Shown here: positions 3,001 through 41,169 of the stretch, piece by piece
Layout: each line of letters opens with the position of its first letter
Numbering within the stretch: position 1 is the first letter of the stretch
Assembly: GCA_030698625.1 (NCBI GenBank)
Contig: JAUYMS010000024.1
Coordinates: 482 to 64,481, forward strand
Length of the DNA: 64,000 nucleotides
Direction: 5' to 3'
DNA from: Candidatus Omnitrophota bacterium
GTDB lineage: Bacteria; Omnitrophota; Omnitrophia; Omnitrophales; Aquincolibacteriaceae
Notes under the pieces: generated by a model
The model's input: the letters and a program-made list of their open reading frames with translations, nothing else
What the model was told of the DNA's origin: nothing
Database searches by the model: none
Translations under genes and position numbers: made by a program

Positions 3001-6000
3001 ACAACCGCAGGGCTTCTTCTTCGGTAGCGATTGGCAAGGCCTTTGTCTGACGAATGGGATTTTCTAGATATTCATTATTAAGTGCCGCAACTCGGCGACT
3101 CATCACCGGCGGTGTAATAATTGACTCGCCTAGATCTTTGAGCTCCTTGGCTCCGATATAATCGCTCAAACCTCGCAAAAGCGCCGGAAGCGACACATCC
3201 TGCCCATCGGCAATCAGCGCTTGATGCGCCTTGACAAGGGCAAAACTCAGGGGATCGATAAGAATTTCACGAAACTGCCCCAGGGCAACTTCATCCAAGC
3301 TCAAGCTGTATATAAGCGCCACCTCTTCTCCCTCGATTTGATCGCGAATTTGCGCCATGAGCCCAAGGCTGAATTCATACCAGTTTTCTGCGTCGTTATT
3401 CTCCAAATAGCGCAGGGCGATTTTTTGAATTTCTTGTCGAATCACCTGGCGGCGTACATTTTTGTCTGCTTTGGCACGTGTTTCACGGCGCTGGGTAAGC
3501 ACCTGCTTCAGCGAACCGTCCCGCTCGAATCGGTATCCCCGGCTGAATAAGAAGGCCTGCAGATCCCGAGCACCGACACCTTCTCCCAACCATGTCGCAA
3601 GATTCTGCAGGCCGTCGCTCGGGGCAAGCTCTCCCAAATACGGCTCATAAACCAAAAGACTCCTCTGACTCAGGTAGGTAACAACCTTGCTTTGGAGATC
3701 CTGATATCTCTGCTCAATGCGGTCAGCTACCGCATGATAATCACGCACAAACTTATTCGGATTCTCTGCCTTGCGGAACATCTCCCAATAGAAATCTCGG
3801 GCGTCATGCAGCAGCAGCCTTAATGAGAGGCGCTGTTCGTTAGTCATGATGGACTGTTCGTAGCCCTGAACGTTAACTTTGGTTTCGCCTGCGGCATCAA
3901 TAAGTCGTGTCATTTCCTCTTTGGGAAAATCCGAAGGCTCCAGACCGTTCTTCGTTGCCCACACTAAGATGTCAGCCTGCCAGTCCAAATCTCGGAGAAA
4001 ACGGACTAGGGATCGTGTTACCGGTGACCGCCACCCCTGAAGGGCTTCACGCGCTGTGGTTTCGTCAATGTGAACGCCGATGCTGATGCGAGTTGCTAGA
4101 GTCGCAGCATCACCTTCCCGGGCATAATTTGGGTCGGCGGCAATAATGGTAAGCAGGCCGGCTTGTTCAAGCGTGATCTTCTCTGACCGGGCCAATTCAG
4201 AAATGACGTGGAATGCGGGCTCAGTTTTGTCCAGATGAGTTGCGATTCGAGTTTCAATAGCCGCATGAAAATCCGCGTCGGCGTCGGGGAGATCCACGAC
4301 ATGAAGTGAATCAATCTGCCCCCTAATTCTCCCGATCAACGGGCGATCCAAATAATCGTCAATGCGGTCTTTCAAATGCAGCTTGCGTGCTTCCTCACTC
4401 ACAGATCTATGTGTTTTGTGATATTGCTCTTGAAGCTGCTGCAGGCGCTCACGGGCCGCCGCGAGAAAGTCACGGACAATACCGGTCTTCGTCTGCTCGT
4501 CCGCAGACTCGGCAATAGGCGCCATGATTCCGTCGTTCCCATAGTGCGCGCGGGCATAGGCGATGATCGCATCTCCCAGTCGCCTGATCACAGAATCTGT
4601 ATTTGCACGGTTGCCCAAGCCCTGAAGGCCGGTAAGAAAAGGCTTCACTCTGTCGTCCAATCCGCGCTCTCGAACATTGTGGGGAATATCGATATCCATA
4701 ACACCCTGCGCCACAGCGATCTTAAAGGGCCGACTTCGAAAATAGGGCTCTTGTTCAAAGAAATACCTTAACTGATATAAAAACTCGATAAAGGGATCAG
4801 GATTTTTGATGATGGCTTCAAGAGCTCTCTCCGGAAGATCTCGCCCCCAGAAAAGGTGATCGTAAGCACTCCAGAGCGGTTCACTGCGCTTAATCAAATC
4901 ATAGGCCAGAAGTATCTGCCTTTGCGTTTCAGGAGCATAGTGCTCGGCCGTTTTGGATGCGAGGCCTTGGTCCAGCATAACATCGGTGAACGTGTCACGA
5001 ACCGGCACGGAGAGTCGATTCCAGATCACCACATAAAAAAGCCGCCAAACGTCATTGGCGCGCGCCCGTGACTCGCGCAGGTAATCAAGGACTTCATCAA
5101 CCGTCTTCCCGTCGCTCTCCGCAACCATCGACACGCTTGCACTCATAGAATCATCCGTTTCAAAGGAGAGCTCCTCCTGAACACCGTATGTAATCAGATC
5201 TTCGGCGGCAATCTTTGCGGCGAGCTTTTTAACGTTTCGGTAGTCCTGTTCGGCCAACGTCATGATGCCTTCGACGGGAAGATTGTCCAAGAGCTCAAAT
5301 GGCTGGGTATCGCTCTGCAACACTTCTGTGTTAATCCGCGCCAACAAATCCTCCACCTCCGCTTCTTGCCATTCCCTGTCCTCCTCACCCCTTCCCCAAT
5401 TGAGAGCTATCGTCAACTCCTCTTTAGACGGCTCCGCGGCATTTCGTCTTTCGTCTCGAGCACGGAGGCGACGGGGATCCAACTCATCGAACTCGGCCTC
5501 AGATCTTTCCCGATAATTCTCCTTGTAGGCCCGAATGGCATGGTAATGAAGCAGGACAGTATGTCCGCCGTCCATGATGGCCGGATCATAGGCATTGGGA
5601 GGATTCACGGGAATGGTAATGACATCCAAGTCGATCACGGCACCCGGAATCTCGACGGCCGCAGCCAACCTTTCCATCTTTTCACTAAGCGGTGCCCGCA
5701 CCTCAAAATCTACGCGCCCCTCTTTGGCATCAGATATAATCTCAAACTGATCCGCAAATGGCTCAATCGCTTTCAACACGCGGTCATCTTCAATAAACCC
5801 CACGGTCGGAATCTTGGCTATTCGCGTCGCCAAGTCCAAAACATCTTTAATACGGTCACTCTCAACCGCGAGAGCTTTCAGAGCCTGACTGACGGCTTTG
5901 GCATCAACGCCCTGCTTCAGGAGGTCATAACCCATGACAACAGCAAGCAGGATCGCTTGCTCGACAGCCGCTTCGGGAAGCGTGTGGTCTTCAACACCTT

Positions 6001-8688: not shown

Positions 8689-8698
8689 GTCCGTGGCG

Positions 8699-11600
8699 TT
8701 ACGCCGAAGCCGCGATCTCGCGATGGGACGCAGCCATAAGCTGCAAGAGGGTTGTCAATATGGTGATTCCTGTGGAAACATCATATTGAACGGAGCCGGC
8801 ATACCTCTCCAGTGCCTTATCAAGAGCTTGAGCCGTTATCTCCGCAGTTTCAGTCGTGCTGAGAAACTGCGCTAGCGGAGGAACTAACGACATACTAAAG
8901 GCAAGAGGTACACCGTTGCTGCGCACGATACGCTGTCTCGGCACTGATCTACTCAGAGCCAGCCACCTATCATGGGGAAAGAAAATCCCGTATGCGTCCG
9001 CAAACTTCTGGTTACCAATAACACGTTGATCGAGCTGCTTGGTAAGCTCAACCCATTGTGAATCTGTCCCGTCTACCCAATACAAAGAATCTCTAACTAA
9101 GTTCTGAGCCGCGGCCTTCTGTTTTGACAGCGCACTCAGGAAATCACCCTTCTGCTTCTTCTCCTTATCAGAAAAAACAATATGAAACTGAAAATCCTTA
9201 ACATCTAAATTCGGTTGGCTGTCCACCGCTTCGTAGACGCGCGCGACAAAAGAGAGTAATTGCTCCTTGATTTCCGGCGAATAAAAGATGATGGGAGTTA
9301 GCTGCTTGACTTCCTGGCGCTGAATCGCATCGACTAAGCGGTCCAGCGAAGCACGAAACTCCTCCCGGGCAATTTGATTAAACTGCTGGGGGCTGAAGCG
9401 GTGCTCCTTTAGAACTGTTCCGGCGTACGCGTATGCCTCGCGGGTAGATCCGGAGAACTGCTGAGCGGCAGCTGTGCGAACAAAGAGGTGATCAAAAATC
9501 AAAAGCCGATAAGAGGCGCGGAGGCCGTCTGCGAAACCCGCCACTCCGGTATCAGAATTGGCGACGTTCTCTACGGTAAGCGCTGAGGTGCGTGCAATGA
9601 CGACGGGGCTCGGCGAAACAATCCCGGCAGCAACTTCTGCAATGGCCCTCAACTCGGAACGCTGATCTCCTGCCTTAGGCGCTGGCTTCGCTATCGTCAG
9701 GGTGTTTTCAGCTTCCTCATCTAACGGATTGCGTATGATCTGAAGCAACATCGTTCCTGGTTCACCCGCCTTTTCAACGACGGCAAAGGCAGTATGCGCC
9801 TCAATCGTCTCATTTCCGTCCGTAACCTGAGGAATAATGAGTCCGTCACTGGGCTTTGAAATATCGATAATGGCCACGGGATGATTGTTTTCGTCGTCGA
9901 TAATGTAGTCAAAGATCGGAGTCATGTGCCCGGAATCTGCGACGCCGGTAGGTCCCACGATGTCCGCAATTTCCCGCCTGACCTGGAATACCGCCGCTAA
10001 ACTCCTTCCGGGAAGTTTTCGTACGATGAGGGCCGGGCCTTTCGCCTCCCGACCTCCGATTAGAAGCAATCCATGCGCCGGTAGCCCGTCAGCCGCTATC
10101 TTGGGCCATATTTTCGTCTGCCCACCCTTACCGCGACCACCCAACCGCGTTATTCCATATCTTTTGTCTGCACCCCTACGATAGGCGCCATTCCACTCCG
10201 GAAAACGAATACTTGTGACATCTTCTTGGGTTTCTATGGCTTCCCAATTTAAATCCCACGGCTCTTCCACAGAGTCCGGAGTCATTCCCGGCTTAAGCCG
10301 ACCAAGCCACGTCCGTTCACCGGCCTCATCCACATGGATGATCGTAATCGATGTCTCCTCGGCATCGCCCTCAAGATCCATTTCCTCGTCAAATTCAGTA
10401 TCGATATGTCCCGCGCTTAAGCGGTTCGGAAACTTTTTGCCGTGGCGGCCGATGAAGAGCTCAATCGCGCGCGTCTGATCCGCCGCAAACTCGTCTTGAA
10501 TTTCGTCCCCAAGTTTTTCGCTGAGATACTCACGGATGCGTCGAACAACGCTCGAATCCAGAGAGCCTCCGAGCGCTATCGCTTTACGCGAAGCCCGGTA
10601 CTTCCCGAGAAAATCTCGATTCTCTTTTCGTGTGCCGCCCGCGCTGTGTTGAAAATTCAATATGCGCCCTTCCAATAGCGGAAGTGCCTTGGGGTCCGCA
10701 AGCTCCCAAAGAAATTTCACGAGGTGTGCATAAACCTTCTGATTTACAAGCGTGGTAGCGATTTCAAGATAGCGGCCCGACTCCTTAAGGCCGGCAAAGC
10801 GTTGCTGCAGCCTGTCCAAGCCGACAAACGCAAGCTCCAAGCGATTTTCATCGCTCAGGCCTTTAATTTCGGAGACGAGAGCATCCAAATGGGCATGAAG
10901 TCTGAGCTGTAAGAGTGTGGTAATATCGGCGGGCGCCAAGCCTGAGTCTTGCACGAGGTGCGCATTCACCCAAATGGTCTTATTATCCTCATCCACGATG
11001 ATGTCCGAGGAAAAGTGCTGCATTCCTTCCTGAATCATGACGAATGTATAGCCCTTTCCATCACTGAAGTTGGCGGGATTTTTGAGTAACTGCATCAAAT
11101 CATGATCGTCGGTGATATCGTCGGGAACCGGTTCGGGTTGAGGCAGAACTTGGGGACGGCCACCTCGGGGCTGTCCGCCTGTGGCTGCTGGTTCTTCGAC
11201 GATGACACGGCGGCCTTCATTATTCATATCAGAAAGTGTCCGCCGCAAGAGGTCAATCACTTCAACGTCAAGCTCATTGGCAAATGGATCCCATTCTGGA
11301 TTATCTCCGAAGCGCACATTCAGGATTTCGCCCAGAACGCTTTCAAGATAGGCTGCTTCGGGATTCAAGTCGATCATCTGATGAATTTTACCGGTAATTT
11401 GGGGCACCGCACCTATGTCCGGATGGGCTGTCGAAATGAGCCCTTTAAGCTCCCCTTTTAGTCTCAGGAGCTGCACCTCTTCCGAACGTAATTCCACCGC
11501 ACGCCTATTGATGCGCGTAACCCTATCTTCAATCCAGGCGTTCAGGCTGCTCGTCGGGTCTCCCTGATCCCCATCATCGGTGGGCGGATGAATGTGTATC

Positions 11601-14600
11601 ACGTCCGCACCGCTTCGTGTCAGGCTATGGCGTCTGCCGCTTCGTATCTCATAGCCATCCCAGGGGAGCCTGCTTAATCTTTCCGGACTAAGGTCGACGT
11701 CAACATTCGTCCTCTTTGCCAGCACGAATGAACTCTGCGTCAGAACCTTACGCAATCTGGCCGGAATACCCTCTAGGTTGAGCGTGCCGAATCCGTTATG
11801 AACGACGGTCATTCCGTAGTTCTCCTCAAGAAAAGTTCTCGCCGCTTCGGTCATGTCACCGTTGTGAAGAAAGAGCAACACATAACCATCCTTCTTCGTA
11901 TGCTGCACGAGTTGTTTCAACATATAATTGCGCTGGCCTACGTAGAGTTTCGGAATGTCCGCTTCCGTAATTCCTGCGGGAATACGGTCGAGTACCATAT
12001 TCAGTAAGCTCCTCTCCGCCCTCGGCAGGGCTTCCGGCACGCGAGCTCTGTGCTCTCCCCGCAAACGCCTGCGGATAATATCCTCCAGAATTCTGCGCTG
12101 TTCCGGCGTTAGATCCGGAGGAATGATCGGTTGACCATAATGCCAAAGTTCGGAACCTATGGTCAACTGCGCCACTTCGGGCTCCAAATCATCCAAGACG
12201 AGGTTCTTATTTATGTAATCAACGTTCGTAACACCCCGGTTATCCAAGTTCTTGTGCGCTAAATCCAGCATAGCTTGGGAGAAATCCACTAGGTTATAGT
12301 GCAGGTCATTGATCTTGAAATCACCCGTCGGTGAAAGATTTGCCATGATACGACGAACCTCGTACCAGCCGAGAAGATCTGTGGCCGGTCCTGAGGGCAG
12401 AAAGCTAACCGTATCCCCCTTCGACAATTCAATCTGTCCGGTCGTCTGTAGTTCTACAAGGTAACGCAAAAACATCTGCCCCAAAGGATACGCAGCCAGC
12501 CGCGTAATTTTTTCGGAATATTCTTTGGCAAAGCGGTCCCACATGTCGCGTACGGTATTCCAGTCACCCGTCCGCATTGCCACTGAGTAAATGCGTTCTA
12601 AGTTTGCGAGTAATCGTAACATTTTGTCGCGCTCGCGCGACGCGTCTTGAATCGCTTGATAACTGCTGACTTCAAGTTGCTCGTCATCCACAAATCCGTC
12701 CAGGGCCTGAAGCAACATGTCGCGTTTCGTACCCACAAGAGGAATTGCGCGGGTCGCTTCCCATGTATTCGGCGCATAATACTGACGAATGTGAATTTCG
12801 TCGGCGGACTGACCACGCCGGTAAATGCGCGAGATCACCTGCTCACGTCTTGCATCGGTTAGCGGAGAGTCAACGATGTAAATTGCATCAGTGGGCTTCT
12901 CCTCGGAGCCGACGACGTCGAAACCTTCCCCGCCGGAGCCCGCCATCGCTAGAAGTATCTCCTTATCCGGAGAATCATGATCCGTGTGTCGATTAAAGTT
13001 TTCGATGGTAGCATACCGAAGCGGTCCCGTGACCGGTTCGTTGTGGTCAGGCTTCTGTAGTGTTGCGATAAATTCCTGTCCGAGGCGCCGTTGCACCATG
13101 CGGCGAATACGTGCCATGGGCTTCGGAAATGTGGCTGTATTGTAGTCCGCATGCATGACAATAGCCCGGAAGTCACGCAGGGCTTGTTCCTGACTGACCG
13201 GTTTCGTTGCGACAATCCTGCGGCCGATAACGCTTTCGAGATAGGGCTGCGCCTTGTGTTCAACTCTCCGGACGAGGTCATCCTCGGCAACTAAATCCTT
13301 GCTTATCGATTGAATAACACGCTGAATTGAAGCGACGGGAATACCGAGTTCGCTAACATCCGATACTTCCGAACGACCCGCCAGGACGCGCTGCAGTCTC
13401 AGGACCTCCGCCTGTCCGCGTTTCTGGGCCACCAATTCATGAATACGCCGCAAGATGGCGTGAAAATTACTAACGGCAAAGACTTTACTGTCAGGATGAG
13501 TACTACGGTGGTTAATAAGATCAGTAGCCACCGCGTCGAGGCGCGCAGGCGAAGTAAAGGCATAGGGGAAATTGGGATTCGTCGAGGGATCCCCATAGGG
13601 ATTGGGGGGCCCCCAGGATTGCCTGTCATGAGTCAACTCCCTTATGGCTTCGGCAATAATTCTGTCGATACTTTCTTGAACACGAGGATTGATCTCGAGT
13701 TGATCCTGAAGCGATGGCAGTGCTTCCTCCAGACGCAGCAGTACAGCCTCAAGCGTCGCAGGATCAATTCCTAACGCATCCAAATCCAAGCTTCCTAACT
13801 GAAGTCGGGTAATTTTTCCAACGCGTTGCTGGTTATCCGCCGTATTCAGGAGGTCCCTGTCGAGATATTCATAAACTGCCTGCTGAAGGTTATCACCGGC
13901 CGGTGTCAAACGTTGTTCGAGACTCACTTCTACGAACTCGGTATCGAGACGCTCGGGCAAATTATCGCCCAGGACCTGTTCGCGCGACCTCCGGATAATA
14001 ATACCACGCCTGCGCAAATCAAGATTTAGAGCGACGCGCCCCGCAACACCTTGATAACGCCGACCGAACCCGCGTTGGGAGGCGGCCAGATTCGAAGCGC
14101 CGTTCAGCTGCTCGGGGTATTCCTCCGGGTCCAGCAGATGCAGCAAAGGATAAAGATCACCGACGGAGTTTACTAGCAATGTCCCCGACAAAAGCAGGAT
14201 ACGCTGTTCAGGGCGCGTACTGCGCATTGAGATCAGTGTTTTTGTCTCCGAATTCGTCGCATTCTTAAAGCGGTGGGCCTCGTCAACGATAATGAGATCG
14301 GGTCCCTGATCAGCCCCGCCCCAGTTCCTGAGCTCTTCGGCCAGAACGTCCTTTTGCTGACGCGTATCCCCGTCCCATTGAATATCTTGACCCGTCGCCA
14401 AAAAATTGTAATTGATCATAACAAAGCGCGCCCTGTTTTTGGCGTAAAGCAATCTCTGCATGCGCGTCGAGTTGCCGTAAGCACCTGAATAATCGGCATC
14501 GATAATCACATAGAGATCCTTTTTCGGACGCTCTCCCTCGGGAAGCTCCTGTAGCCCATCAGCAATTCGTCTCTCGCGGTTCCAATCCTCCTCAGTCATA

Positions 14601-17600
14601 CTGTTCCAATCAACCGCACTCAGATCAAGCCTTTCGGTGTTCGGTAACCATGACTGGATATGCTTTTCTTCCCAATTGTTGAGCACGCCATTGGCGGCAA
14701 TTAGGAGAACGCGTTGGTTACGTTGATTTTCCGATGCCGTCTTCAAGGCCTGCTGCATCATAATATCTTTAGCAACCTGCGCAACGCCGAGCGCTTGCAC
14801 CGATTTACCGAGACCCGGCTCATCGCCGATGAATCCCCGCAGGGTCCTTACTCCAAAGTCAATTCCCTCATGCTGATAGAGCTCTAACTCCTGCTTGATA
14901 CTCGTGCCGGGCTTTACTGCGTTGACATGACTTTGGTACTTGGCTTGTTTGAGATCGTTATAATGCCGTCTTAATTCTGTGTAGACAGTGACATTGGCTT
15001 CGGCTTTTGCCAAACGCAACTGAAGCGCTCCGTCCTCCGAAGCAGTTTGTTCGCGACGAACGGCATCAACTTCAGTCTGCCACTGCGCGCGTCCCGCCTC
15101 GGCCCATTCGATAGCGATCTCCATCGCCTGTTCGGCCGGCGTCCCGCCCTTGCCATTGGCTTCGTCGGCGGCCGCTGCCATCAAATCATTCGCAATCCTC
15201 TCTCTTATCTGTGCAAGTAGAATATTCTTTGTACTGTCATTCTGAAAAAAGAGGTAAAAATCATTCTCCAGATGTTCAATCCGGCCACGGCTGTACGATG
15301 TCGGTTTCCGACTCTTCCTGCCGTTAAGTTGCTGACGGAATTTTTCGGTTAGAAGTTGCATCAGTTGATCTTCGGCCATCTGCGGATTGGCTGCCGACAG
15401 CAAAAACCAGAACCCTGCGCGGTCGGTCTCGAAGAGATCGAGCCATTCATCCATATTAATGGTACGCGTCAGTTGCCGGAAGAGATCGCGGTTGGTCTCG
15501 TCGACTGTTTTTTCCAGACGTCTCTGCCTCTCAATCGCGCCAAAACCCTCGTATTGCCTAAAGCCCGTATCGTGTAGGAGCAATTGCACCGCCGTCTCAT
15601 AAATGCGGTCGGGACCCGCTGCGGCGGATACGTAATCTCGATTGACAACTTCTGCCTCGTACACCGCAATGAGAGACTCCAGGTTCTGATCCCCCAGGAT
15701 CGGCTGCTTAAAATTGCTTCGGTTCCGGAGAAGACCGTCCATGTCGGTGTCAGCTTGAGACATGAGATAGAGCAAGAGCGTACGTATCGCGTCGCGACTG
15801 ATGATCCTCTCATCCTGCCACGGGGCTTCGGCAAGATTGGAGAGCCACCTCTGACTGGGATCAAGCAGCTGTGTCCGCAACTCGGAGCGAGCCGGTAAAT
15901 TCCTGAACACCCGGCTCAGTTGTTCGCGAGTTAGGGCATCATCACCGGCCAGCTTAGCGATGCCGGATACAAGCCTCCTCTTACCAGAGACATACTTTGC
16001 CAATTCTGCTGCCGCAACACCGCCGATCCTTCTGTTGACACCACGTTCACCGGGCTTCCCCTTTTCCCAGTAACCAACCGTTCCTGACTGCACGGGTCCG
16101 CCGAGCGCCGCATAGATCACGGCTTCATGAAGTTCGGAATTGCTCAGATTAAGTGCGCGCGCAACTAAGAAAGCATTATCTAAGAAGTTACTTCTCAACT
16201 TACCTGCAACGACTGGCGTAATGTTGCCGTGAGGAAAGTTTGCCCTTTTAATAGCGGCTTCGACGGCGGCTTCAAGGGCTTGGTTGGCTTCATGAAAGAT
16301 CGGTTCCATTTGGATCAAACTAAGATTGGGTACCCCAAGAATACGCGCCACCGCTGCGGCATCCGTAACTTCATTTCTCGGCAATGCTGTTCCTAAGAGG
16401 AATTGTGCTAACTTCGCCGCGTCCTCCCAGGTAATGGTCGCAATAGGGTTACTGCTCCACCAGCGTCGTGCTTTCGCCACGGGGAGGCCCACAGCTCGGG
16501 CGATATCCTCAACGCCCAGTCCAAACTCCCTCGCTACCGCTTGCGTATTGGCCAGAAAATGGCGATTCGCCCGTATCGTATCGACATCTTCCCTCACCAA
16601 GCGGTGAGAGCCTCGCCTGTAAAGCCATCGTCCGGGCGGCGTGATAACTTCTCGCAAGCGCCTTTCGGCCGCAATGTCCCCGTCGGTCGGCTCGTCCCTG
16701 CGTGCCAAAGCCGAAGGTGCCGGCTCGGGAGCCTCTCCAAAACTCGCATAGATCTCTCTGAGTTGCGCCGTCCCGATTGACGTGTCACCGTATATCTTGG
16801 CTACCGCGCGGACACCATTCGCTTCCCCTGTGACGTATTTAGCGAGTTCCGAGACGAAACCCCACGCCGCAACAGGATCTTCATGCGTGCCGTCCCTGCG
16901 GTCCAATCCGTTTGCCCAGTAGTAGGACGAGGTCGTACGAAGCGCCTGATTGATCTCTCCGTGCGTAATACTCAGCACCGGCGTCACGCGATAGATATTC
17001 CCAAGGACACGCTGTTTAAAACGTTCTGCGGATGCAACCGTAATATTGCCGGGATTGAACTGGGCCGCCGGCAAAGGCGTCGCTTTATCCCGCACGGCTT
17101 GGTCAACTTCCTTTTGAGCATCTGTAAAGACTGCCGCAAGCTGGCGCACACTCAATCGCCGGATACCGACGAGCCTTGCCACCGCTGCCCGGTCATCGTA
17201 AGCGGCTTCATCCTCGAGGAGGTACTTGGCAAGCTTGACCGCATCGTCCCAGGAAATCGTGACATGTTCGTTTCCTTCATAAGTCCACCAGCGCGTGATT
17301 TTCCCGAAAGCTATGCCTGTCTCGGCCGCAATGTCGCGGCTCGCCTGCGTGACTTCGTCTTCGCCCCAGAGGGCTTTAACAACCGCAAGCGCATTGCGAA
17401 TAAAATGGCGGTTAGCGCGCTTCTTATCTATGGAAGCGACGGTATATTGGTCCAGCCATGCCTTCGGATTCTCAATTGTGCGGTTCAGATCGACCCCTGC
17501 GCGCAATTCCGAACGCTCACCAAAATCCGAGAACACCTGTTCAAACTCCGCACGGCCAAGGCTACTGTGCCCTGCGAGTGTGGCTACGGCGCGAATCTGT

Positions 17601-20600
17601 TGCTTGCTTGCCGAGACATACTGTGCGAGCTCGGCTATATAAGCCCAGCTTATGCTCGGATATTCCCACTCGCCATCCTTGCCCGGCTTACCTTTCTGCC
17701 AGTAATTTGCCGTCGTCGTATCCAAGGCTTCGTTTATTTCAGGATTTGTGATACCCAACTGCGGGGTGACACGGAACACGTTCTGCAGCGCGTGCAGTTT
17801 TAAACGGCGGGCATCTCCGTTCTCGACATTACTGGCATCAAAGAGAGAGTACGGCAGGTCGAGGGTTTGCTCGGCCACAATGGTCTTGATCGCATCTCTG
17901 GCACCGTCGAAGATGGGCGCCATTTGGATGAGGCTCAGGTTCGGTGCCCCGATCATGCGCGCCACAGCAGCCGCATCCGTATAATTCTTTTCGATACGAA
18001 GCAGATAGCGGGCAAGCTTTGCAGCATCCTCCCAGTTAATGGTCGCTATGGGGTTGTTCCACCAGCGGCGGACTGTCGCCACATGCACGCCCACAACATC
18101 GGCGATTTCCTGATCGTCGATCTCCAGGTTGTCGGCAACGCGACCTGCATTTTCAAGAAAATGTTGATTCGTCTTGATCGTGTCGGCATCCTGCTTGACA
18201 AGACGATTCGATCCTTTTCGGAATAAGCCACGGGCCGGCTCACGAATCCCGCTGACCTGGGCCACATCCCCCTTGGGCAATCTTTCTCTCGCCCGCCTGA
18301 AGATGGCCGCGATCTGGGCACGAGAGAGTGATGTGTCCCCGAATAGATAAGCCAGCGAACGGTAATAGCTGGTCGCCTCTGGATACCCGGTCAGAGCCAA
18401 CTTGGCCAGTTCTCGGGCATATTCGAGGTCAATACTGCGATAGACAGTACCTTTCTTACCCTTCTTCCAGTAATCCACTGTCCCCGTGCTTCCGGCGCCG
18501 GTGGTCTGACGTATTTCTTCATAGCTGTAATGATTCCCGATCATCCAAAAGGCGTTATCCAAAAAGAGATTCCGTGCCGTTTTGGCTTGTTCGATCGTAA
18601 GATTATCAAGATCAACGACTTCCCCACGCTTCGCGAAGTAATTTTGTAAGGTAGTCGGCTGTTTGACGAGATCCCCGTCTTCGGCCTGGGTCCTGAGCTC
18701 TGAGCGCGTAGGAAAAGCCGCAAACACTTCGCTTAATTCCGCATGCGTCAGGTTCTCGTCGCCGGTCAGAGTGGCGGTTGCCGACACAGCCAGCTTCTTT
18801 CCGGTAATATACTTTGCCAACTGAGCTGCATAGGGCCCGCGAATCGTTCGCTTGGCACCTTTCTCACCGGGTTTGCCATTTTCCCAGTAACCTACTGTTC
18901 CTGATTGGGCCGGTCCGCCCATGGCGATATGGATCACGGCTTCATGGATTTCGGCGTTACTCATGTTCAGTGCCCGCGCTGCGAGAAAGGCATTGTCGAG
19001 AAAGTTACTTTTCAGCTTTCCGGCTGCAGTCGGCGTCAGAGGATCCCGCTTAAAGTTAACGGGTTTAACAGTATCGGCGATAATCTGATTAATGACCTTA
19101 TTGGCTTCGTGAAAGATGGGTTTCAGCTGAATCAAACTCAGACGCAGCGCACCGAAGATTCTTGCAACCGCTTGCGCGTCGGTGAAGTCGCCCGATTCGT
19201 CACGCAAAAGCCGTTGAGCCAATTTTGCGGCATCCGCCCATGTAATCGTGGCAATCGGATTGGCCCACCAACGGCGAACCGTCGCAACGTGAACACCGAC
19301 GAGATCGGCAATTTCCTGATTATCAATTTCGAGGGCTTGAACAAGCGCATAGGTATTGGCAATAAAATGGCGATTGACCTCGACTTTTCTATCACCGATA
19401 TCTTCCGCGAGAATCCGTTTCGAACCAGGTCTGAAAAATTCATCAGCTGGTCTTTCTATAAGTCTATTGATATTGACTGGCCCATCGGCGGCGGGCGGTG
19501 CCGGTCTCGATTTAGCAGGCGATTTCACGACCGCGGGCTGCCGTGTCTGCGGCGTAGGCATTTGGTCGTCACGCGGAAAATCACGCCATATCCGGCTCAA
19601 CACATTTGCATCAATCGTGTCATCGCCCGCCATTTTGGCAACGGCTACGACCGGGTCCACTTCAGCGGAGACATATTTCGCGAGCTCGGAAGCAAAACCC
19701 CAGGCAATGACAGGGTCCTCATGGGTGCCGCCCGGGCGGTCCAATCCGTTCTGCCAATAATAGGCAGACGTGGTATTGAGCGCATTATTAATTTCATAGT
19801 GCGTCACCTTTAAGGCGGGAGTCATTCTGTAAATATTGCTGTAGACATGCTGTTTGAAGCGCTCCGCCAATTCCGGCGTAATCTCATTGCGGTCAAAATC
19901 AATGCCGCTAAGGGGCTGCACTAATTCTTGGGCAACCTCATCAATAACGTTCTTCACTCCCGTAAAGATGGGCGCTAATTGTCTCAAACTCAGGCCTTTA
20001 TTACTCGCCACGCGCGTCCCGAGAATACGTGACACCGCGGCCGCAGGTTCATAAGCGAATTCGCTTTCCAAGAGGACGAGCGCCAGAATAGCTGCATTGG
20101 CAAAAGTAATAGTCGCGGCGGGATCCGTTCTCCAGAACGACACCGTACTAGGCGTAATTTCTTCGTCAAGCGTTGCAAAACCGTCCACGATATCCACATT
20201 CCGAATGCCTAAGGCATCGGCAACGCGAAACGCATTCTTCAGGAAGTGGCGGTTGGCCTTGTTACCGTCAAGCGTGCCGAGGTCATAGGGCTTGAACCAT
20301 TTGCCCGGTTTCTTGATCACCCTGCTGAGATTGACCGTCTCGACATCTTCGCCCCTGAGTTCCGATCGGGCCCGAAAGCCCGGATACCTTAAAAGAAAGT
20401 CGGGTCTTAAAGATTGCGTGCGGAAGACCGCAAGAATCGTTCCAGCCGGTACGGCTTCGGCAAACTGGTTGGTAGGGCTGCTCAAGATGCGCGCCACTTC
20501 AGCTTCCGTGAGCCTATCCTGCTGATCCAAAATATTGATTCGTTCGATGAAGCGTTCCAGATTCGCGGACCACTTCTCAGTGAAACGCGTGATCAGATCA

Positions 20601-22357
20601 TCTTCCATTCGGCTTTCTATCTTGCGGTCGAGAAGTTGCGTATAGCGGCCTGCCTGTGTGATGCGGCCCTGTTCATAGAGACTCCGAATCACGGAATCAC
20701 GCCAGGCCCTAAGTGTAAGGCCCTGTTTGACGCTGCCCTCCGTAAGTCTATCTACGGTTGCCTCTGTAAATGCCGCCCGCAGGTCAATGCGGCCCTTACG
20801 GACTTTAAAATACTTATTCCAGGACACTTGTCCGCGCATGTAATCTTGATACCGTGTCTGTTCCGGGATTTCGTCAATATCGGGGGTCACCACCGCAAAG
20901 GATATCCCCTCCGCTCGAAAGGACTCGGCAAGTGCCTCGCGGTGAAAACCACCGGTAATAACGACAACAGTCTTATCTGCCTGCTTTGCACTGAGCTTTT
21001 TGATATTCTCGAGGAAGACCTGATCGCGCTTAAATGTCGTTTCATAGAAATGACGAAAAGCGAGGGTAGTCTCCTCGTCAAAGAGCGCCTGAACTTTTGC
21101 TGCCAAGCCTTCAGCGACCCCGTCAAAGGCAATAACATGACGCATCCAATCGTTGAGCGCATCCCATTCGGTCCGCGAAAGCTCCAGACGCTTTAGCTTT
21201 CCGAGAAGAAAGATCTGCCTGTCCAGATTATCGATGCGGCGTTCTTCAGGTCCTTGGACAACGGTGTCCTTGACCTCTGCGACATAGGCATCCCACTGAG
21301 TAAAAAACTCAGGGCCTCGAGTACGACTAAGCAGATTATGATGTCGGGTCAGCTCTTCTAGCCTCTGTGAGATATTTGGCAGCTCGATGTGCTTCGTCTC
21401 TTGGAGTTCGCTTAGCAGATCTGAGAGGACGCTTGCAAATCCGGCTCGGCTGATGGCTTCGGTTCGATAAGCCTGAAGCTTCTGGTGAAAGTCGCGTATC
21501 TGTGAAGTCGCCGTGAGGACCGGTTTTATGGCAGATGCAATCGCCTCAAGTTCCTGATCAAACTCTTTGGCGCTCTTAAACTCCTCGAGCTTAATACTCT
21601 TCGCCAACGAGTGAACTAGCGGATAGGCATGCTCGTCAACGGGATGAATGCCGACCATGTATGCCATCAAGTCACTTAGATAGCCCCGTTCGACCCGCCA
21701 CCGTTTCAAACGCCTGTCGAGCGCCATTGTCTGCGCACTATAATGCCCTTCTTTGAGAGTATTCAGCTCGCCTTCCAGTTGTTCGAGATATTCCTCTAGC
21801 TTTGGCCCCTCATTTAATGAAACCAGGAATGACGCGGTACCCTCTTCATACAAGCTTGGGTCTTCCATCCCGACATACAGCGTGTCGTCATCACCAAGGA
21901 CGCTGGCGGCAATGGCACCGGAGAGTTCTCCACTGCGCATATAATCGCCGAATACCTGCTCCAACTTTTCCCTGTCTGGAAACGCCCGGAATAGGCTTGG
22001 GTCAAATGCCTTGTCGGTACCTTCAAGGGCGACCGCATCGACGGTATATGCATTCAGCAGATAGCGCAATATCTTATAGATTGAACTCTGAGCTTGAGGA
22101 ATGGCGTGTGCGTCCTGAATAAAGATCACCGTCGGGGCCTCTCTGTCCGACTGATAGCGTTCTTCTATATACCCCAGGTCTTCCGGTAATTTAAGCAGGC
22201 TGAGAGAGCCGTCTCTAAGAGACTGGCGAAACGCAGGGACTTGGGTTTGAGCTCCAACCAAAGGCAGGGCCGCATACGCCGCCTGCATGGGGTTAAAAAT
22301 AACCTCAGCGGCGCAAAATGCAATGAGAGTCATCGTTGAGATAATCTTCTTAATCAT
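8699..22357 (-). CDS. Giant multidomain protein B, 4552 aa. Approximate layout: signal peptide or signal anchor (aa 1-35); conserved N-terminal domain with 'IFIQDAH' (aa ~82) and 'ITGGFHRE' (aa ~469), possibly TraB/GumN/Tiki-like; repeat array with HTH-like 'RRWW' motifs (aa ~650-2150); SNF2-family helicase core (aa ~2480-3200); about 1300 aa of C-terminal region of unknown function.
   Basis: An uninterrupted 13.6 kb ORF. SNF2 motifs read from the sequence: motif I GFIGDEPGLGKS (nt ~14800-14830), motif II LIIVDEAHRFKN (nt 14261-14284), motif III LLLSGTLLVNSVGDLYPLLHLLDP, motif VI QVISRIYRRGQ (nt ~12811-12845). The HTH-like repeats and N-terminal hydrophobic segment are described under findings. 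Confidence 0.9.
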   Translation of the reverse strand: MIKKIISTMTLIAFCAAEVIFNPMQAAYAALPLVGAQTQVPAFRQSLRDGSLSLLKLPEDLGYIEERYQSDREAPTVIFIQDAHAIPQAQSSIYKILRYLLNAYTVDAVALEGTDKAFDPSLFRAFPDREKLEQVFGDYMRSGELSGAIAASVLGDDDTLYVGMEDPSLYEEGTASFLVSLNEGPKLEEYLEQLEGELNTLKEGHYSAQTMALDRRLKRWRVERGYLSDLMAYMVGIHPVDEHAYPLVHSLAKSIKLEEFKSAKEFDQELEAIASAIKPVLTATSQIRDFHQKLQAYRTEAISRAGFASVLSDLLSELQETKHIELPNISQRLEELTRHHNLLSRTRGPEFFTQWDAYVAEVKDTVVQGPEERRIDNLDRQIFLLGKLKRLELSRTEWDALNDWMRHVIAFDGVAEGLAAKVQALFDEETTLAFRHFYETTFKRDQVFLENIKKLSAKQADKTVVVITGGFHREALAESFRAEGISFAVVTPDIDEIPEQTRYQDYMRGQVSWNKYFKVRKGRIDLRAAFTEATVDRLTEGSVKQGLTLRAWRDSVIRSLYEQGRITQAGRYTQLLDRKIESRMEDDLITRFTEKWSANLERFIERINILDQQDRLTEAEVARILSSPTNQFAEAVPAGTILAVFRTQSLRPDFLLRYPGFRARSELRGEDVETVNLSRVIKKPGKWFKPYDLGTLDGNKANRHFLKNAFRVADALGIRNVDIVDGFATLDEEITPSTVSFWRTDPAATITFANAAILALVLLESEFAYEPAAAVSRILGTRVASNKGLSLRQLAPIFTGVKNVIDEVAQELVQPLSGIDFDRNEITPELAERFKQHVYSNIYRMTPALKVTHYEINNALNTTSAYYWQNGLDRPGGTHEDPVIAWGFASELAKYVSAEVDPVVAVAKMAGDDTIDANVLSRIWRDFPRDDQMPTPQTRQPAVVKSPAKSRPAPPAADGPVNINRLIERPADEFFRPGSKRILAEDIGDRKVEVNRHFIANTYALVQALEIDNQEIADLVGVHVATVRRWWANPIATITWADAAKLAQRLLRDESGDFTDAQAVARIFGALRLSLIQLKPIFHEANKVINQIIADTVKPVNFKRDPLTPTAAGKLKSNFLDNAFLAARALNMSNAEIHEAVIHIAMGGPAQSGTVGYWENGKPGEKGAKRTIRGPYAAQLAKYITGKKLAVSATATLTGDENLTHAELSEVFAAFPTRSELRTQAEDGDLVKQPTTLQNYFAKRGEVVDLDNLTIEQAKTARNLFLDNAFWMIGNHYSYEEIRQTTGAGSTGTVDYWKKGKKGTVYRSIDLEYARELAKLALTGYPEATSYYRSLAYLFGDTSLSRAQIAAIFRRARERLPKGDVAQVSGIREPARGLFRKGSNRLVKQDADTIKTNQHFLENAGRVADNLEIDDQEIADVVGVHVATVRRWWNNPIATINWEDAAKLARYLLRIEKNYTDAAAVARMIGAPNLSLIQMAPIFDGARDAIKTIVAEQTLDLPYSLFDASNVENGDARRLKLHALQNVFRVTPQLGITNPEINEALDTTTANYWQKGKPGKDGEWEYPSISWAYIAELAQYVSASKQQIRAVATLAGHSSLGRAEFEQVFSDFGERSELRAGVDLNRTIENPKAWLDQYTVASIDKKRANRHFIRNALAVVKALWGEDEVTQASRDIAAETGIAFGKITRWWTYEGNEHVTISWDDAVKLAKYLLEDEAAYDDRAAVARLVGIRRLSVRQLAAVFTDAQKEVDQAVRDKATPLPAAQFNPGNITVASAERFKQRVLGNIYRVTPVLSITHGEINQALRTTSSYYWANGLDRRDGTHEDPVAAWGFVSELAKYVTGEANGVRAVAKIYGDTSIGTAQLREIYASFGEAPEPAPSALARRDEPTDGDIAAERRLREVITPPGRWLYRRGSHRLVREDVDTIRANRHFLANTQAVAREFGLGVEDIARAVGLPVAKARRWWSSNPIATITWEDAAKLAQFLLGTALPRNEVTDAAAVARILGVPNLSLIQMEPIFHEANQALEAAVEAAIKRANFPHGNITPVVAGKLRSNFLDNAFLVARALNLSNSELHEAVIYAALGGPVQSGTVGYWEKGKPGERGVNRRIGGVAAAELAKYVSGKRRLVSGIAKLAGDDALTREQLSRVFRNLPARSELRTQLLDPSQRWLSNLAEAPWQDERIISRDAIRTLLLYLMSQADTDMDGLLRNRSNFKQPILGDQNLESLIAVYEAEVVNRDYVSAAAGPDRIYETAVQLLLHDTGFRQYEGFGAIERQRRLEKTVDETNRDLFRQLTRTINMDEWLDLFETDRAGFWFLLSAANPQMAEDQLMQLLTEKFRQQLNGRKSRKPTSYSRGRIEHLENDFYLFFQNDSTKNILLAQIRERIANDLMAAAADEANGKGGTPAEQAMEIAIEWAEAGRAQWQTEVDAVRREQTASEDGALQLRLAKAEANVTVYTELRRHYNDLKQAKYQSHVNAVKPGTSIKQELELYQHEGIDFGVRTLRGFIGDEPGLGKSVQALGVAQVAKDIMMQQALKTASENQRNQRVLLIAANGVLNNWEEKHIQSWLPNTERLDLSAVDWNSMTEEDWNRERRIADGLQELPEGERPKKDLYVIIDADYSGAYGNSTRMQRLLYAKNRARFVMINYNFLATGQDIQWDGDTRQQKDVLAEELRNWGGADQGPDLIIVDEAHRFKNATNSETKTLISMRSTRPEQRILLLSGTLLVNSVGDLYPLLHLLDPEEYPEQLNGASNLAASQRGFGRRYQGVAGRVALNLDLRRRGIIIRRSREQVLGDNLPERLDTEFVEVSLEQRLTPAGDNLQQAVYEYLDRDLLNTADNQQRVGKITRLQLGSLDLDALGIDPATLEAVLLRLEEALPSLQDQLEINPRVQESIDRIIAEAIRELTHDRQSWGPPNPYGDPSTNPNFPYAFTSPARLDAVATDLINHRSTHPDSKVFAVSNFHAILRRIHELVAQKRGQAEVLRLQRVLAGRSEVSDVSELGIPVASIQRVIQSISKDLVAEDDLVRRVEHKAQPYLESVIGRRIVATKPVSQEQALRDFRAIVMHADYNTATFPKPMARIRRMVQRRLGQEFIATLQKPDHNEPVTGPLRYATIENFNRHTDHDSPDKEILLAMAGSGGEGFDVVGSEEKPTDAIYIVDSPLTDARREQVISRIYRRGQSADEIHIRQYYAPNTWEATRAIPLVGTKRDMLLQALDGFVDDEQLEVSSYQAIQDASRERDKMLRLLANLERIYSVAMRTGDWNTVRDMWDRFAKEYSEKITRLAAYPLGQMFLRYLVELQTTGQIELSKGDTVSFLPSGPATDLLGWYEVRRIMANLSPTGDFKINDLHYNLVDFSQAMLDLAHKNLDNRGVTNVDYINKNLVLDDLEPEVAQLTIGSELWHYGQPIIPPDLTPEQRRILEDIIRRRLRGEHRARVPEALPRAERSLLNMVLDRIPAGITEADIPKLYVGQRNYMLKQLVQHTKKDGYVLLFLHNGDMTEAARTFLEENYGMTVVHNGFGTLNLEGIPARLRKVLTQSSFVLAKRTNVDVDLSPERLSRLPWDGYEIRSGRRHSLTRSGADVIHIHPPTDDGDQGDPTSSLNAWIEDRVTRINRRAVELRSEEVQLLRLKGELKGLISTAHPDIGAVPQITGKIHQMIDLNPEAAYLESVLGEILNVRFGDNPEWDPFANELDVEVIDLLRRTLSDMNNEGRRVIVEEPAATGGQPRGGRPQVLPQPEPVPDDITDDHDLMQLLKNPANFSDGKGYTFVMIQEGMQHFSSDIIVDEDNKTIWVNAHLVQDSGLAPADITTLLQLRLHAHLDALVSEIKGLSDENRLELAFVGLDRLQQRFAGLKESGRYLEIATTLVNQKVYAHLVKFLWELADPKALPLLEGRILNFQHSAGGTRKENRDFLGKYRASRKAIALGGSLDSSVVRRIREYLSEKLGDEIQDEFAADQTRAIELFIGRHGKKFPNRLSAGHIDTEFDEEMDLEGDAEETSITIIHVDEAGERTWLGRLKPGMTPDSVEEPWDLNWEAIETQEDVTSIRFPEWNGAYRRGADKRYGITRLGGRGKGGQTKIWPKIAADGLPAHGLLLIGGREAKGPALIVRKLPGRSLAAVFQVRREIADIVGPTGVADSGHMTPIFDYIIDDENNHPVAIIDISKPSDGLIIPQVTDGNETIEAHTAFAVVEKAGEPGTMLLQIIRNPLDEEAENTLTIAKPAPKAGDQRSELRAIAEVAAGIVSPSPVVIARTSALTVENVANSDTGVAGFADGLRASYRLLIFDHLFVRTAAAQQFSGSTREAYAYAGTVLKEHRFSPQQFNQIAREEFRASLDRLVDAIQRQEVKQLTPIIFYSPEIKEQLLSFVARVYEAVDSQPNLDVKDFQFHIVFSDKEKKQKGDFLSALSKQKAAAQNLVRDSLYWVDGTDSQWVELTKQLDQRVIGNQKFADAYGIFFPHDRWLALSRSVPRQRIVRSNGVPLAFSMSLVPPLAQFLSTTETAEITAQALDKALERYAGSVQYDVSTGITILTTLLQLMAASHREIAASA
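12750..14920 (-). other. SNF2/Swi2-family helicase core (SNF2 N-terminal ATPase domain plus helicase C-terminal domain) embedded in gene B.
   Basis: DEAH-box variant DEAHRFKN, Walker A GLGKS, motif III LLLSGT, arginine-finger motif QVISRIYRRGQ. Confidence 0.8.
15900..20400 (-). repeat. Protein-level tandem repeat array inside gene B. At least five diverged modules of about 250-300 aa (the fifth, 'VADALGIRNVDIVDGF', is degenerate). Each carries 'ANRHF(L/I)xNxxxVAxxLxIxxxEIAxxVGVHVATVRRWWxNPIATIxWxDAAKLA', resembling a transposase/excisionase-type helix-turn-helix, followed by 'YWxxGKPGExG' and 'AELAKYV' submotifs, and ending in 'RSELR' plus acidic residues.
   Basis: Motif copies found at nt ~19265-19315 (EIADLVGVHVATVRRWWANPIATITWADAAKLA), ~18065-18115 (EIADVVGVHVATVRRWWNNPIATINWEDAAKLA), ~17285-17340 (GIAFGKITRWWTYEGNEHVTISWDDAVKLA), ~16455-16510 (IARAVGLPVAKARRWWSSNPIATITWEDAAKLA), and a degenerate copy at ~20160-20260. 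Confidence 0.7.
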
Positions 22358-40107: not shown

Positions 40108-41169
40108 TTACAGATATCTTTTCTTATGGTTCTTCTTGAGATGCTCGGTAACCGAACGAATATTCTCCGTCTTTTCTTTAGAGCAGATGAGGAGCGCATC
40201 AGGCGTATCTACGATGACATGGTTTTTCACGCCGACCAGCGCCACGAGCTTACCGCAGGCCTTCACAATGTTGCCCGAACTCTCGATGCAGACCGAATCA
40301 GCGAGAAGGACATTGCCGTTTCTGTCTTCGGGGTATAAATCGGCAAGGGCCTGCCAGCCGCCGATATCATTCCATCCCATCGAGACAGGAATGGTGAGAA
40401 TCTTGCCCTTAAGTTTTTCCATGAGTCCGTAATCAATCGAGATATTGGGCATTTTGGCATACAGCTTCCCCAGTTGCCTCATCCCGCCGCGCGCCATAAG
40501 CCGATTTAATACGCGGGACACAGCCGGGAGGTAGCGCTCTGTCGCGGACAGGAGATTTTCAGCACGCCAAACAAACATTCCGCTGTTCCAGAAAAAACGT
40601 CGTTTCCTTAAGAATTGCTTCGCTCGCGCGCGAGTCGGCTTTTCGTGAAAGCGCTTGAGGCAGTACACGGTAAAACCTCCCTGGCGCGTTACCTTCGCCC
40701 CCTTTTCCAGATACCCGTACCCCGTAAAAGCATAGGTCGGCTGAATACCAAATGTTACCGGAAATCCCTCAGTCTCCGCGACACGCGCAGCCGATTTGAG
40801 CGCTCGTCGAAAAACGTTTCCGTTATCAATGCGGTGATCGGCGGGCATCAGGGCAATGACGGCATTGGCATCGTTCTTGAGCGCAATCGCCGCACCCCAT
40901 GCAGCACACGGTGCCGTATTGCGGCCCACGGGCTCACCCAGAATCTGAGAGCGGCGGATACCGGTCGACCTAGCCACCAGCGACACTTTGTCAGCCTGGG
41001 TCACGACGATCATACGCGACTTCGGAATGATGGCCGTCAGCCGGTCGACGGTCTCTTCGATAAGAGTTTTTTTGCCAAAAAGGTTGAGAAATTGTTTAGG
41101 GAGTTTGTGACGGCTTTCAGGCCAAAAGCGCGTGCCGCGTCCGCCGGCCATAATGACAGCCCACAACAT
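40108..41169 (-). CDS. manC: Mannose-1-phosphate guanylyltransferase.
   Basis: N-terminus AVIMAGGRGTRFWPESRHKLPKQF, nucleotidyltransferase fold. Confidence 0.85.
   Translation of the reverse strand: MLWAVIMAGGRGTRFWPESRHKLPKQFLNLFGKKTLIEETVDRLTAIIPKSRMIVVTQADKVSLVARSTGIRRSQILGEPVGRNTAPCAAWGAAIALKNDANAVIALMPADHRIDNGNVFRRALKSAARVAETEGFPVTFGIQPTYAFTGYGYLEKGAKVTRQGGFTVYCLKRFHEKPTRARAKQFLRKRRFFWNSGMFVWRAENLLSATERYLPAVSRVLNRLMARGGMRQLGKLYAKMPNISIDYGLMEKLKGKILTIPVSMGWNDIGGWQALADLYPEDRNGNVLLADSVCIESSGNIVKACGKLVALVGVKNHVIVDTPDALLICSKEKTENIRSVTEHLKKNHKKRYL

Follow-up and report, generated by a model that had tools for sequence, protein, structure and literature searches.

What is the purpose of a single bacterial polypeptide which appears to combine a long array of helix-turn-helix (HTH) domains, a DNA-dependent motor and a signal for export? 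This question is raised by gene B of a Candidatus Omnitrophota metagenome-assembled genome (MAG), located at 8699..22357 on the minus strand of the window, i.e., the 64,000-nucleotide stretch of contig JAUYMS010000024.1 that was analysed (positions 482 to 64,481; assembly GCA_030698625.1). Gene B is one unbroken open reading frame (ORF) of 4,552 amino acids (aa), open over 13.6 kb, and its product is identical to MDP3919809.1, a 'SNF2-related protein' of a Candidatus Omnitrophota MAG. An earlier note had described at 15900-20400 an array of at least five HTH-like modules, punctuated by the peptide RSELR as a linker. The answer proposed here is a tentative one, held at somewhat short of an even chance: gene B would encode an exported modular polyprotein in which blocks of HTH domains are DNA-binding cargo beside an SNF2 motor, and in which the RSELR-type motifs are processing sites.

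The repeat array is real and lies at almost the same coordinates as those reported. Comparison of the gene B product with itself (BLASTP, 200-aa windows) yielded 37 off-diagonal matches, all within aa ~620-2195, with identities of 25-64% and E-values down to 1.5e-72. The array as a whole occupies aa 665-2161 (15875-20365, minus strand) and, according to these matches, comprises five full modules and one half module, all of them on the minus strand: M1 (aa 665-960), M2 (aa 961-1222), a half module consisting of a second half only (aa 1223-1370), M3 (aa 1371-1619), M4 (aa 1620-1900) and M5 (aa 1901-2161). The submotifs that had been listed for the modules are present in them in the stated order. 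The closest pairs are M1 with M4 and M2 with M5 and, in consequence, part of the array can be regarded as a duplicated two-module block. Furthermore, the first halves of the modules (five, A2) align with the second halves (six, A3) with an hhalign probability of 97.7% (E 2.5e-12, 100 columns). Every module is thus internally duplicated and the array consists of 11 units, not 5; a hidden Markov model (HMM) built from these units matches gene B exactly 11 times. As a number of HTH domains, the earlier count of five is not supported, whereas the periodicity is borne out by the self-matches, the alignment of the halves and the 11-unit HMM.

Since the source is a metagenome-assembled contig, the repeats could be suspected to be an artefact of assembly or gene calling. 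This explanation is already refuted and its probability is practically nil: the module copies are only ~60-80% identical in DNA, without any long identical stretch, the frame is open over the whole 13.6 kb, and orthologues in independent assemblies share the same architecture. As had been argued before, the level of DNA identity points to an old duplication.

Each unit has ~125 aa and includes five helices, a short sixth helix and the tail 'AVARIxGxxxLSxxQLxxIF'. The layout opens with a long helix that reads 'NRHFLxNA' or 'NFLDNAF', after which come helix 2, a turn, helix 3, helix 4 and the tail. Helix 3 ends in a Trp ('VATVRRWW' or 'GTVGYWE') that is invariant in all 11 units, while helix 4 reads 'AAKLAxxL' or 'AELAKYV'. 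Two subtypes of units, a-type and b-type, alternate along the array, the latter having an insertion of 10-15 residues between helices 3 and 4.

The fold of the unit was predicted with AlphaFold2 (AF2). The model of M2, obtained with the six repeats as alignment, is all-helical (predicted local distance difference test, pLDDT, 83; predicted template modelling score, pTM, 0.80), and the unit appears in it as a compact five-helix bundle with a helix 2-turn-helix 3 arrangement and structural matches of XRE type. DSSP places helix 2 at aa 1013-1020 and helix 3 at aa 1024-1032. The corresponding example in unit M2a, with its invariant Trp, is 'LEIDNQEIADLVGVHVATVRRWWAN' (aa 1009-1032; 19262..19333, minus strand). 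In view of helices 2 and 3 of the model and of the XRE-type matches, the 'VGVHVATVRRWW' segment, previously proposed to be part of an HTH, is best read as the turn plus the recognition helix. The 'RRWW' peptide occurs in exact form in 3 units, and it is the single Trp which is invariant in the 11. The sequence profiles mostly agree with an XRE type, although weakly. Only when scores were summed over several units across the whole of B did Pfam report PF20432 (Xre-like-HTH; 28.1 vs a cut-off of 25.8) and PF13443 (HTH_26; 26.9 vs 22). NCBIfam gave sub-threshold matches of NadS and YiaG-like type. Against the sequences of the PDB, the best match of the 11-unit profile was the XRE regulator 3op9 (E 0.04), in register over helices 1-3. 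The affiliation to transposase/excisionase-type HTH domains, suggested in the earlier note, was rejected: HTH_17 (19.5 bits; cut-off 27), HTH_23 (21.3; 24.6) and MerR (13.8; 28.2) all stayed below threshold, each over 16-18 residues, and the structural matches are of XRE type. As modelled, the units are lambda-repressor/XRE-type HTH domains, not transposase/excisionase-like ones.

Which proteins share this unit? The unit is almost unique: when the module profile was run with HMMER on 1.84 billion representative proteins, only six matched: (i) B itself; (ii) P0002, of 3,171 aa; (iii) P0003, a 2,952-aa fragment of P0008 (5,278 aa); (iv) P0004, of 5,515 aa; (v) a 222-aa fragment; and (vi) a distant protein of 312 aa that has four HTH repeats. 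The named relatives of P0002, P0003 and P0004 are Omnitrophota 'SNF2-related' proteins. Four units were counted in P0002, seven in P0008 and three in P0004, the array of B (11) being the largest seen. The unit is carried by only one of the 81 family ORFs from species-representative genomes that are presented below, and a scan of genome contigs with module M2 detected no relatives. Regarding the existence of the module as a stand-alone protein elsewhere, for which the earlier note had asked, the matched proteins and their relatives offer only a distant case: P0013 (L080:3597-4556, 319 aa), a relative of the 312-aa match, stands alone and consists of four HTH repeats in tandem, one every ~85 aa. 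Its contig is phage-like, the genes nearby including one for a Mu-like gpT capsid protein and one for a phage integrase, and P0013 is the closest to a free-standing HTH array that was found. Another protein, P0014 (915 aa), is annotated as 'TolC family protein [Planctomycetes bacterium]'. It matches B at 79% identity across most of the N-terminal domain, the RSELR and M1, and then becomes TolC-like; it is probably an assembly chimera or comes from a misbinned contig, and its existence shows that another MAG contains a close relative of gene B.

In B, P0002, P0004 and P0008, the HTH array is located directly upstream of an intact SNF2 ATPase. That of gene B (aa ~2494-3330; 12368..14878, minus strand) is recognised by Pfam (PF00176, 56.9 bits vs a cut-off of 24.9) and by helicase motifs I, II, III, V and VI: GLGKS at 2515 (Walker A), DEAH at 2692, SGT at 2724, GGEGF at 3142 and QxxxRxxRxGQ at 3173. 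Judging by these motifs, the SNF2 core is intact. Beyond the domains described here, none was recognised in gene B by Pfam, PADLOC or NCBIfam, and Pfam is empty over aa ~3120-4552.

On fold grounds, multivalent DNA binding by the array is plausible. The array is the sole basic part of B (isoelectric point, pI, 8.45 vs 5.2-6.6 for the other parts), the pI of single units ranging from 5.0 to 10.6. An alternative, which we consider improbable, is that the XRE-like units no longer bind DNA and act instead as helical scaffold or protein-protein modules of an extracytoplasmic giant protein, as many repeats of giant surface proteins do. Such a role would be in keeping with the predicted export and with the fact that several units are acidic or neutral. 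Nevertheless, all 11 units retain the helix 2-turn-helix 3 geometry and, following helix 3, a 'W-x-x-G' signature, the Arg-rich recognition helices (VATVRRWW) are conserved in the a-type units, the array always accompanies a DNA-dependent SNF2 motor, and no other part of the protein is basic.

The second element to be understood is the RSELR motif, of which gene B holds five copies on the minus strand: (i) motif 1, at the end of the N-terminal domain (aa 664-668; 20354..20368), where the pLDDT of the AF2 model is <50; (ii) motif 2, from aa 1218 (18692-18706); (iii) motif 3, from aa 1615 (17501-17515); (iv) motif 4, from aa 2157 (15875-15889); and (v) motif 5, just before the C-terminal domain (aa 4233-4237; 9647..9661). 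The motif ends M2, M3 and M5, not M1 or M4, and brackets HTH blocks of 4, 3 and 4 units, all on the minus strand. Block 1 (aa 669-1222; 18692..20353) contains M1a, M1b, M2a and M2b and ends in motif 2; block 2 (aa 1223-1619; 17501..18691) contains the half-module unit, M3a and M3b and ends in motif 3; and block 3 (aa 1620-2161; 15875..17500) contains M4a, M4b, M5a and M5b and ends in motif 4. Blocks of 3-4 HTH units bracketed by the motif are also found in P0002 and P0008. The two sites covered by models (aa 664 and 1218) lie in low-pLDDT segments that are probably disordered.

Gene A, the neighbour of gene B, is relevant in this respect. It occupies 1..8608 on the minus strand, with its ATG at 8608, 90 nt downstream of the stop codon of B, and runs off the window (>2,869 aa). 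It begins with the same signal-like N-terminus and the same TIKI-fold N-terminal domain as B, and has four RSELR sites on the minus strand (6662-6676, 6218-6232, 1202-1216 and 809-823). The unit HMM finds no HTH unit in its visible part, in agreement with the earlier note, which had seen no RRWW motif there, and Pfam reports only a weak TPR match. An RSELR-bounded cassette is duplicated within gene A (aa ~680-1000 vs ~2500-2899; residues are counted along the open frame starting at window position 8698, i.e., 30 codons before the ATG): the two copies are 21% identical and the RSELR is kept in register.

Altogether, genes A and B contain 9 copies of RSELR in one reading frame, against a single copy in the remaining five frames. 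The latter (~42361-42375, in a plus-strand frame) is antisense to a phosphoglucomutase-like gene (41169-42530, minus strand) and is most likely due to chance. The codons of the motif differ at all 9 sites (Arg: CGA/CGC/CGT/AGA; Ser: TCG/TCA/TCC; Leu: CTC/TTG/CTT), a synonymous variation that indicates selection on the peptide, not on the DNA. A DNA-level signal was ruled out, as the codons differ at every site, and so was the possibility that RSELR forms part of the HTH module, as the motif also follows unrelated domains. Its description as a module linker has consequently to be abandoned: it ends three of the five modules and is a family-wide feature, present also after non-HTH domains in A, in B and in ~80 related giant proteins.

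These related giants were collected by a scan with the N-terminal domain, one genome per species, which returned 78 loci, all of them from Omnitrophota or unclassified MAGs except one labelled Planctomycetales. From the 78 loci, 81 ORFs were taken, most of them of 2,000 to >4,000 aa, many running off the locus. The N-terminal domain (~600 aa), together with a signal-like N-terminus, is common to B and A, and the domain is also present in P0002-P0004. In an unbiased count of 5-mers in the 81 ORFs, IQDAH and GGFH, both motifs of the N-terminal domain, are among the most recurrent, and the next ones include RSEVR (52 in 26 ORFs) and RSELR (57 in 23 ORFs). The pattern [RK]SE[LVMI]R was seen 180 times in the 81 ORFs vs 2.5 +/- 1.7 in shuffles. 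In the control frames of the family loci it was seen 12 times, all within adjacent same-strand giant ORFs that are continuations of family ORFs or further tandem family genes, which makes the motif effectively exclusive to the family. In its general form, R-[S>A,T,P]-E-x-R, the Glu at position 3 and the Arg at position 5 are near-invariant, whereas L, V, M, A, T, S or I can occupy position 4; the motif comes after small residues and before Ser/Ala/Thr and then acidic residues, and the flanks are otherwise unconserved. The median spacing between motifs in the family is 427 aa, and the first one usually follows GGFH by 150-320 aa, where the N-terminal domain ends. A literature search for the strings RSELR, RSEVR and RSEMR returned unrelated strings only. 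The motif is reminiscent of site-1 protease sites (R-x-x-L), of the oomycete RxLR-dEER motif and of the Plasmodium PEXEL motif.

The family is also multi-copy, often with several loci per genome: at least nine ORFs were counted in MAG SO_2016_GW1_117, while STB_104 has five loci and HK-STAS-OMNI-5 has three (the loci concerned include L012, L023, L024, L041, L047, L048 and L054, from assembly JBAYGD01). Like B and A, family genes often lie in tandem on one strand. The cargo between the motifs differs among members: the paralogue at L035:11882-16744 (plus strand) has a Fic/DOC domain (Pfam, E 4.8e-18), P0003/P0008 show by eye a macro-like domain at aa ~2300-2470 ('TDAIVNPSNPKLL...GGGQIE'), and Pfam gave no match in the motif-rich paralogues L066 and L071 (~4,050 aa each). 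Fic and macro domains are typical of effectors. In P0004 (L001:10001-26548), cargo of both kinds, that of B (HTH units, SNF2) and that of gene A, lies in one chain between a single N-terminal and a single C-terminal domain, hence cargo appears to have been exchanged between family members at motif-delimited boundaries.

Both ends of these proteins are conserved. In B, aa 1-30 (22268..22357, minus strand) form a signal-peptide-like segment, recognised by hydropathy and an AxA site, with MIKK, a hydrophobic stretch and AYA/A; likewise, the family ORFs start with basic residues, ~15 hydrophobic residues and an AxA-like site. A lipoprotein signal was discarded, as no lipobox was seen by eye. Just two segments of B exceed the hydropathy cut-off, namely the N-terminal one and an HTH helix (aa 745-768), and hydropathy reveals no further transmembrane segments. 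At the other end, B has a conserved C-terminal domain of 315 aa (aa 4238-4552; 8702..9646, minus strand) that ends in ...AASA and is also the extreme C-terminus of P0002, P0008 and L040. A small-small-Ala C-terminus (..ASA, ..SAA, ..TAA, ..KAA), preceded by a helical-looking stretch, is present in 22 of the 23 complete family ORFs and may be a signal for C-terminal sorting, secretion or protease recognition.

The N-terminal domain of B (aa ~50-630; 20468..22210, minus strand) is predicted to have a TIKI/TraB/ChaN/EreA-type fold, with invariant D82, H84, E112 and H472. A fold search with its model retrieved the TIKI fold, an alpha/beta structure with a parallel beta-sheet core. The residues of D82-x-H84, E112 and H472 do not vary among 5 divergent members and are located after beta-strands. 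Active TIKI-family hydrolases, among them RRSP, a sequence-specific endopeptidase from MARTX toxins, have a 2His/2Glu catalytic set in common (PMC6254334). The four residues of B resemble this set and thus form a likely but unproven candidate active site, in which the first acid is Asp and not Glu. Pfam stayed below threshold for this domain (PF04187, 15.8 bits, cut-off 27.7; PF18950, 13.3, cut-off 27.5; in one of five members), and a search of PDB sequences with the N-terminal-domain profile returned spurious matches only. In another protein, P0016 (1,093 aa), the family N-terminal domain is fused to a C-terminal MFS-type region with multiple transmembrane segments (PF07690), without RSExR; such a fusion would fit a location of the domain outside the cytoplasm.

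How could these parts work together? In the reading that we prefer, the giant protein would be exported via Sec, and RSExR would be a peptide-level processing site in disordered linkers, cut either by the family's own N-terminal TIKI-fold hydrolase or by a dedicated protease. The HTH blocks would be multivalent DNA-binding cargo with 3-4 recognition helices each, which may act on DNA together with the adjacent SNF2 ATPase or once released from it. The site of action would most plausibly be a target cell, given the predicted export and the proposed host-dependent lifestyle. Action in another cell is suggested by the fact that a machine which depends on ATP and DNA would, once exported, hardly make sense anywhere else, by the Fic or macro-like cargo of the paralogues and by the biology of the Omnitrophota, which are thought to be host-dependent or predatory (PMC10066038). 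A more specific version, of which we are rather doubtful, holds that RSExR motifs are autoprocessing sites of the protein's own TIKI-fold hydrolase, so that the family would consist of Sec-exported, self-cleaving multi-effector polyproteins that release HTH blocks, SNF2 and Fic/macro enzymes into prey or host.

The genomic context of gene B must also be considered. Among the genes scanned, its neighbours are lpxA, fabF, rpsA, genes for aromatic amino-acid biosynthesis, scpA/scpB, trpS, a gltX-like gene, dxs, xseA and two tRNAs, and no phage, plasmid or methyltransferase gene was present among the scanned genes of the window. With lpxA, fabF, rpsA and the aromatic amino-acid genes as neighbours, the context is that of housekeeping genes and not of a mobile element. 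The exceptions to ordinary chromosomal content in the window are gene B, gene A and a third giant ORF at its far end (53572-64000, minus strand; at least 3,461 aa), which is open to the window end, is nearly all E/K/R/Q/A/L-rich and coiled-coil-like, and accounts for the strong GC and AT skew of the window at 54000-64000; its visible part has neither RSELR nor the family N-terminal domain.

This context largely refutes the idea that B is an anti-restriction or defence protein of a mobile element, of the kind of phage P1 DarB or DISARM DrmD (giant SNF2 helicases with or without a methylase), with the HTH domains as regulatory or DNA-recognition add-ons. Its very low probability is not raised much by the weak PADLOC and NCBIfam matches of the DEAH region to DrmD, ZorD and PDC-M27C, as the matches cover generic helicase motifs only and DrmD reaches 16 bits vs a cut-off of 950. 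That the distant four-unit protein P0013 lies in a phage-like contig also speaks for it; but there are no methyltransferase, phage or plasmid genes near B, P0004 has a chromosomal context as well (glmS, accA, fur, znuABC), and the family is multi-copy per genome and carries a predicted signal peptide.

The same housekeeping neighbourhood, which includes scpA and scpB, is instead compatible with the main rival, which we regard as unlikely but worth serious attention. According to it, B is an uncleaved protein, tethered to the producer's membrane by its N-terminal hydrophobic helix, whose 11 HTH units form a long multivalent DNA-binding arm and position SNF2 in cis on the cell's own chromosome, while RSExR is a hinge or a short interaction motif between modules. 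The location of the HTH array directly upstream of SNF2 in B, P0002, P0004 and P0008 is the usual layout of a targeting domain plus motor, and ATP and DNA are available only in the cytoplasm. On the other hand, the positive charges before the hydrophobic segment and the AxA-like site after it predict an N-in/C-out export, and relatives of the TIKI/TraB/ChaN type are commonly found outside the cytoplasm. Were the motif no more than a hinge, there would be no need to maintain R-S-E-x-R near-invariant across ~80 proteins with unrelated cargo. Paralogues, moreover, carry Fic or macro-type cargo. The scaffold, defence and artefact readings are less likely than this one.

Several points weigh against the exported polyprotein that we prefer. 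Cleavage, export and DNA binding are all inferred, from sequence and models. Signal peptides were called by hydropathy and AxA heuristics only, and the AF2 models (M2 and the N-terminal domain) use shallow alignments, of 5-6 sequences each. Foldseek matched the module to the same XRE-type folds, with a template modelling (TM) score of 0.72 to C.BclI (target-normalised), at E-values >= 1, which are not significant, and no single module reached the Pfam gathering score. Three b-type units are acidic (pI ~5), and therefore not all units need bind DNA. The catalytic equivalence with TIKI hydrolases was judged by motif order and strand position, without superposition, and the TIKI fold also has non-proteolytic members (esterases, the haem binder ChaN). 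An exported SNF2 protein would be without ATP or DNA unless inside another cell, and no delivery machinery was identified. Finally, a cut at aa 2157 would part the HTH blocks from the SNF2 motor.

In any case, the array has led to a defined and apparently undescribed family of Omnitrophota giant proteins, whose modules are separated by a motif found only in the family. R-S-E-x-R is a concrete prediction of a cleavage site, directly testable by proteomics. If cleavage at RSExR were true, giant proteins could be divided into functional products in silico, and it would suggest that host-dependent bacteria deliver DNA-acting effectors; if self-processing were true, a concrete cleavage code would be available for the first time for the giant proteins of Omnitrophota.

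Regarding known systems, the domains closest to the units are the XRE/Cro-C1 HTH domains (HTH_3, PF01381; HTH_26, PF13443; PF20432; C.BclI, 2b5a; C.AhdI, 1y7y; lambda cI; P22 c2; HipB). But while canonical XRE/Cro-C1 proteins are single domains that dimerise on palindromic operators, gene B has 11 units in one chain, and these show an extra helix-and-tail extension, the b-type insertion and an identity of <20%. To our knowledge, 11 lambda-repressor-type HTH domains in one chain go far beyond known tandem arrangements. Eukaryotic transcription factors with several lambda-repressor-fold domains resemble B in the multivalent recognition of DNA from one chain, which for B is predicted from models; unlike B, they have 1-3 domains, lack an SNF2 fusion and are not exported. 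SNF2 ATPases fused to DNA-targeting domains are similar to B in that an intact SNF2 core lies downstream of DNA-binding-type domains, whereas we know of no SNF2 protein that has a signal peptide, a TIKI domain, RSExR punctuation or an 11-fold XRE array. MARTX toxins, for their part, have RTX/glycine-rich repeats and an inositol-phosphate-activated cysteine protease domain, for which there are no Pfam matches in B or A; their TIKI domain (RRSP) is a cargo effector and not the processing protease, and their sites are Leu-based, in contrast to R-S-E-x-R here, where cleavage is predicted.

Taken one by one, the HTH and TIKI folds and the SNF2 core were known before. In contrast, the 11-fold array, the motif-bracketed blocks and the architecture signal peptide-TIKI-[cargo-RSExR]n-C-terminal domain appear to be undescribed in the literature searched. 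SNF2, HTH and TraB are not mentioned in the studies on Omnitrophota giants of West-Roberts 2023 (10.1101/2023.11.21.568195) and Nielsen & Lui 2026 (10.64898/2026.06.07.730766), nor in Seymour 2023, and the cleavage points of these giant proteins are stated as not known (West-Roberts 2023, 10.1101/2023.11.21.568195). With the Omnitrophota giants described so far, i.e., the Archaeovorin and Dockerin types (10.1101/2023.11.21.568195) and proteins of at least 10,000 aa (10.64898/2026.06.07.730766), the B family shares its phylum, great length, poor annotation, signal or transmembrane segments in most cases, and suspected cleavage. The published giants have 10,000-147,000 aa, many transmembrane helices and dockerin, C39/S8 peptidase or SecA domains, whereas the members of the B family have ~2,000-5,500 aa, one N-terminal hydrophobic segment and, instead of the dockerin, C39/S8 and SecA domains for which B has no Pfam matches, a TIKI-fold domain.

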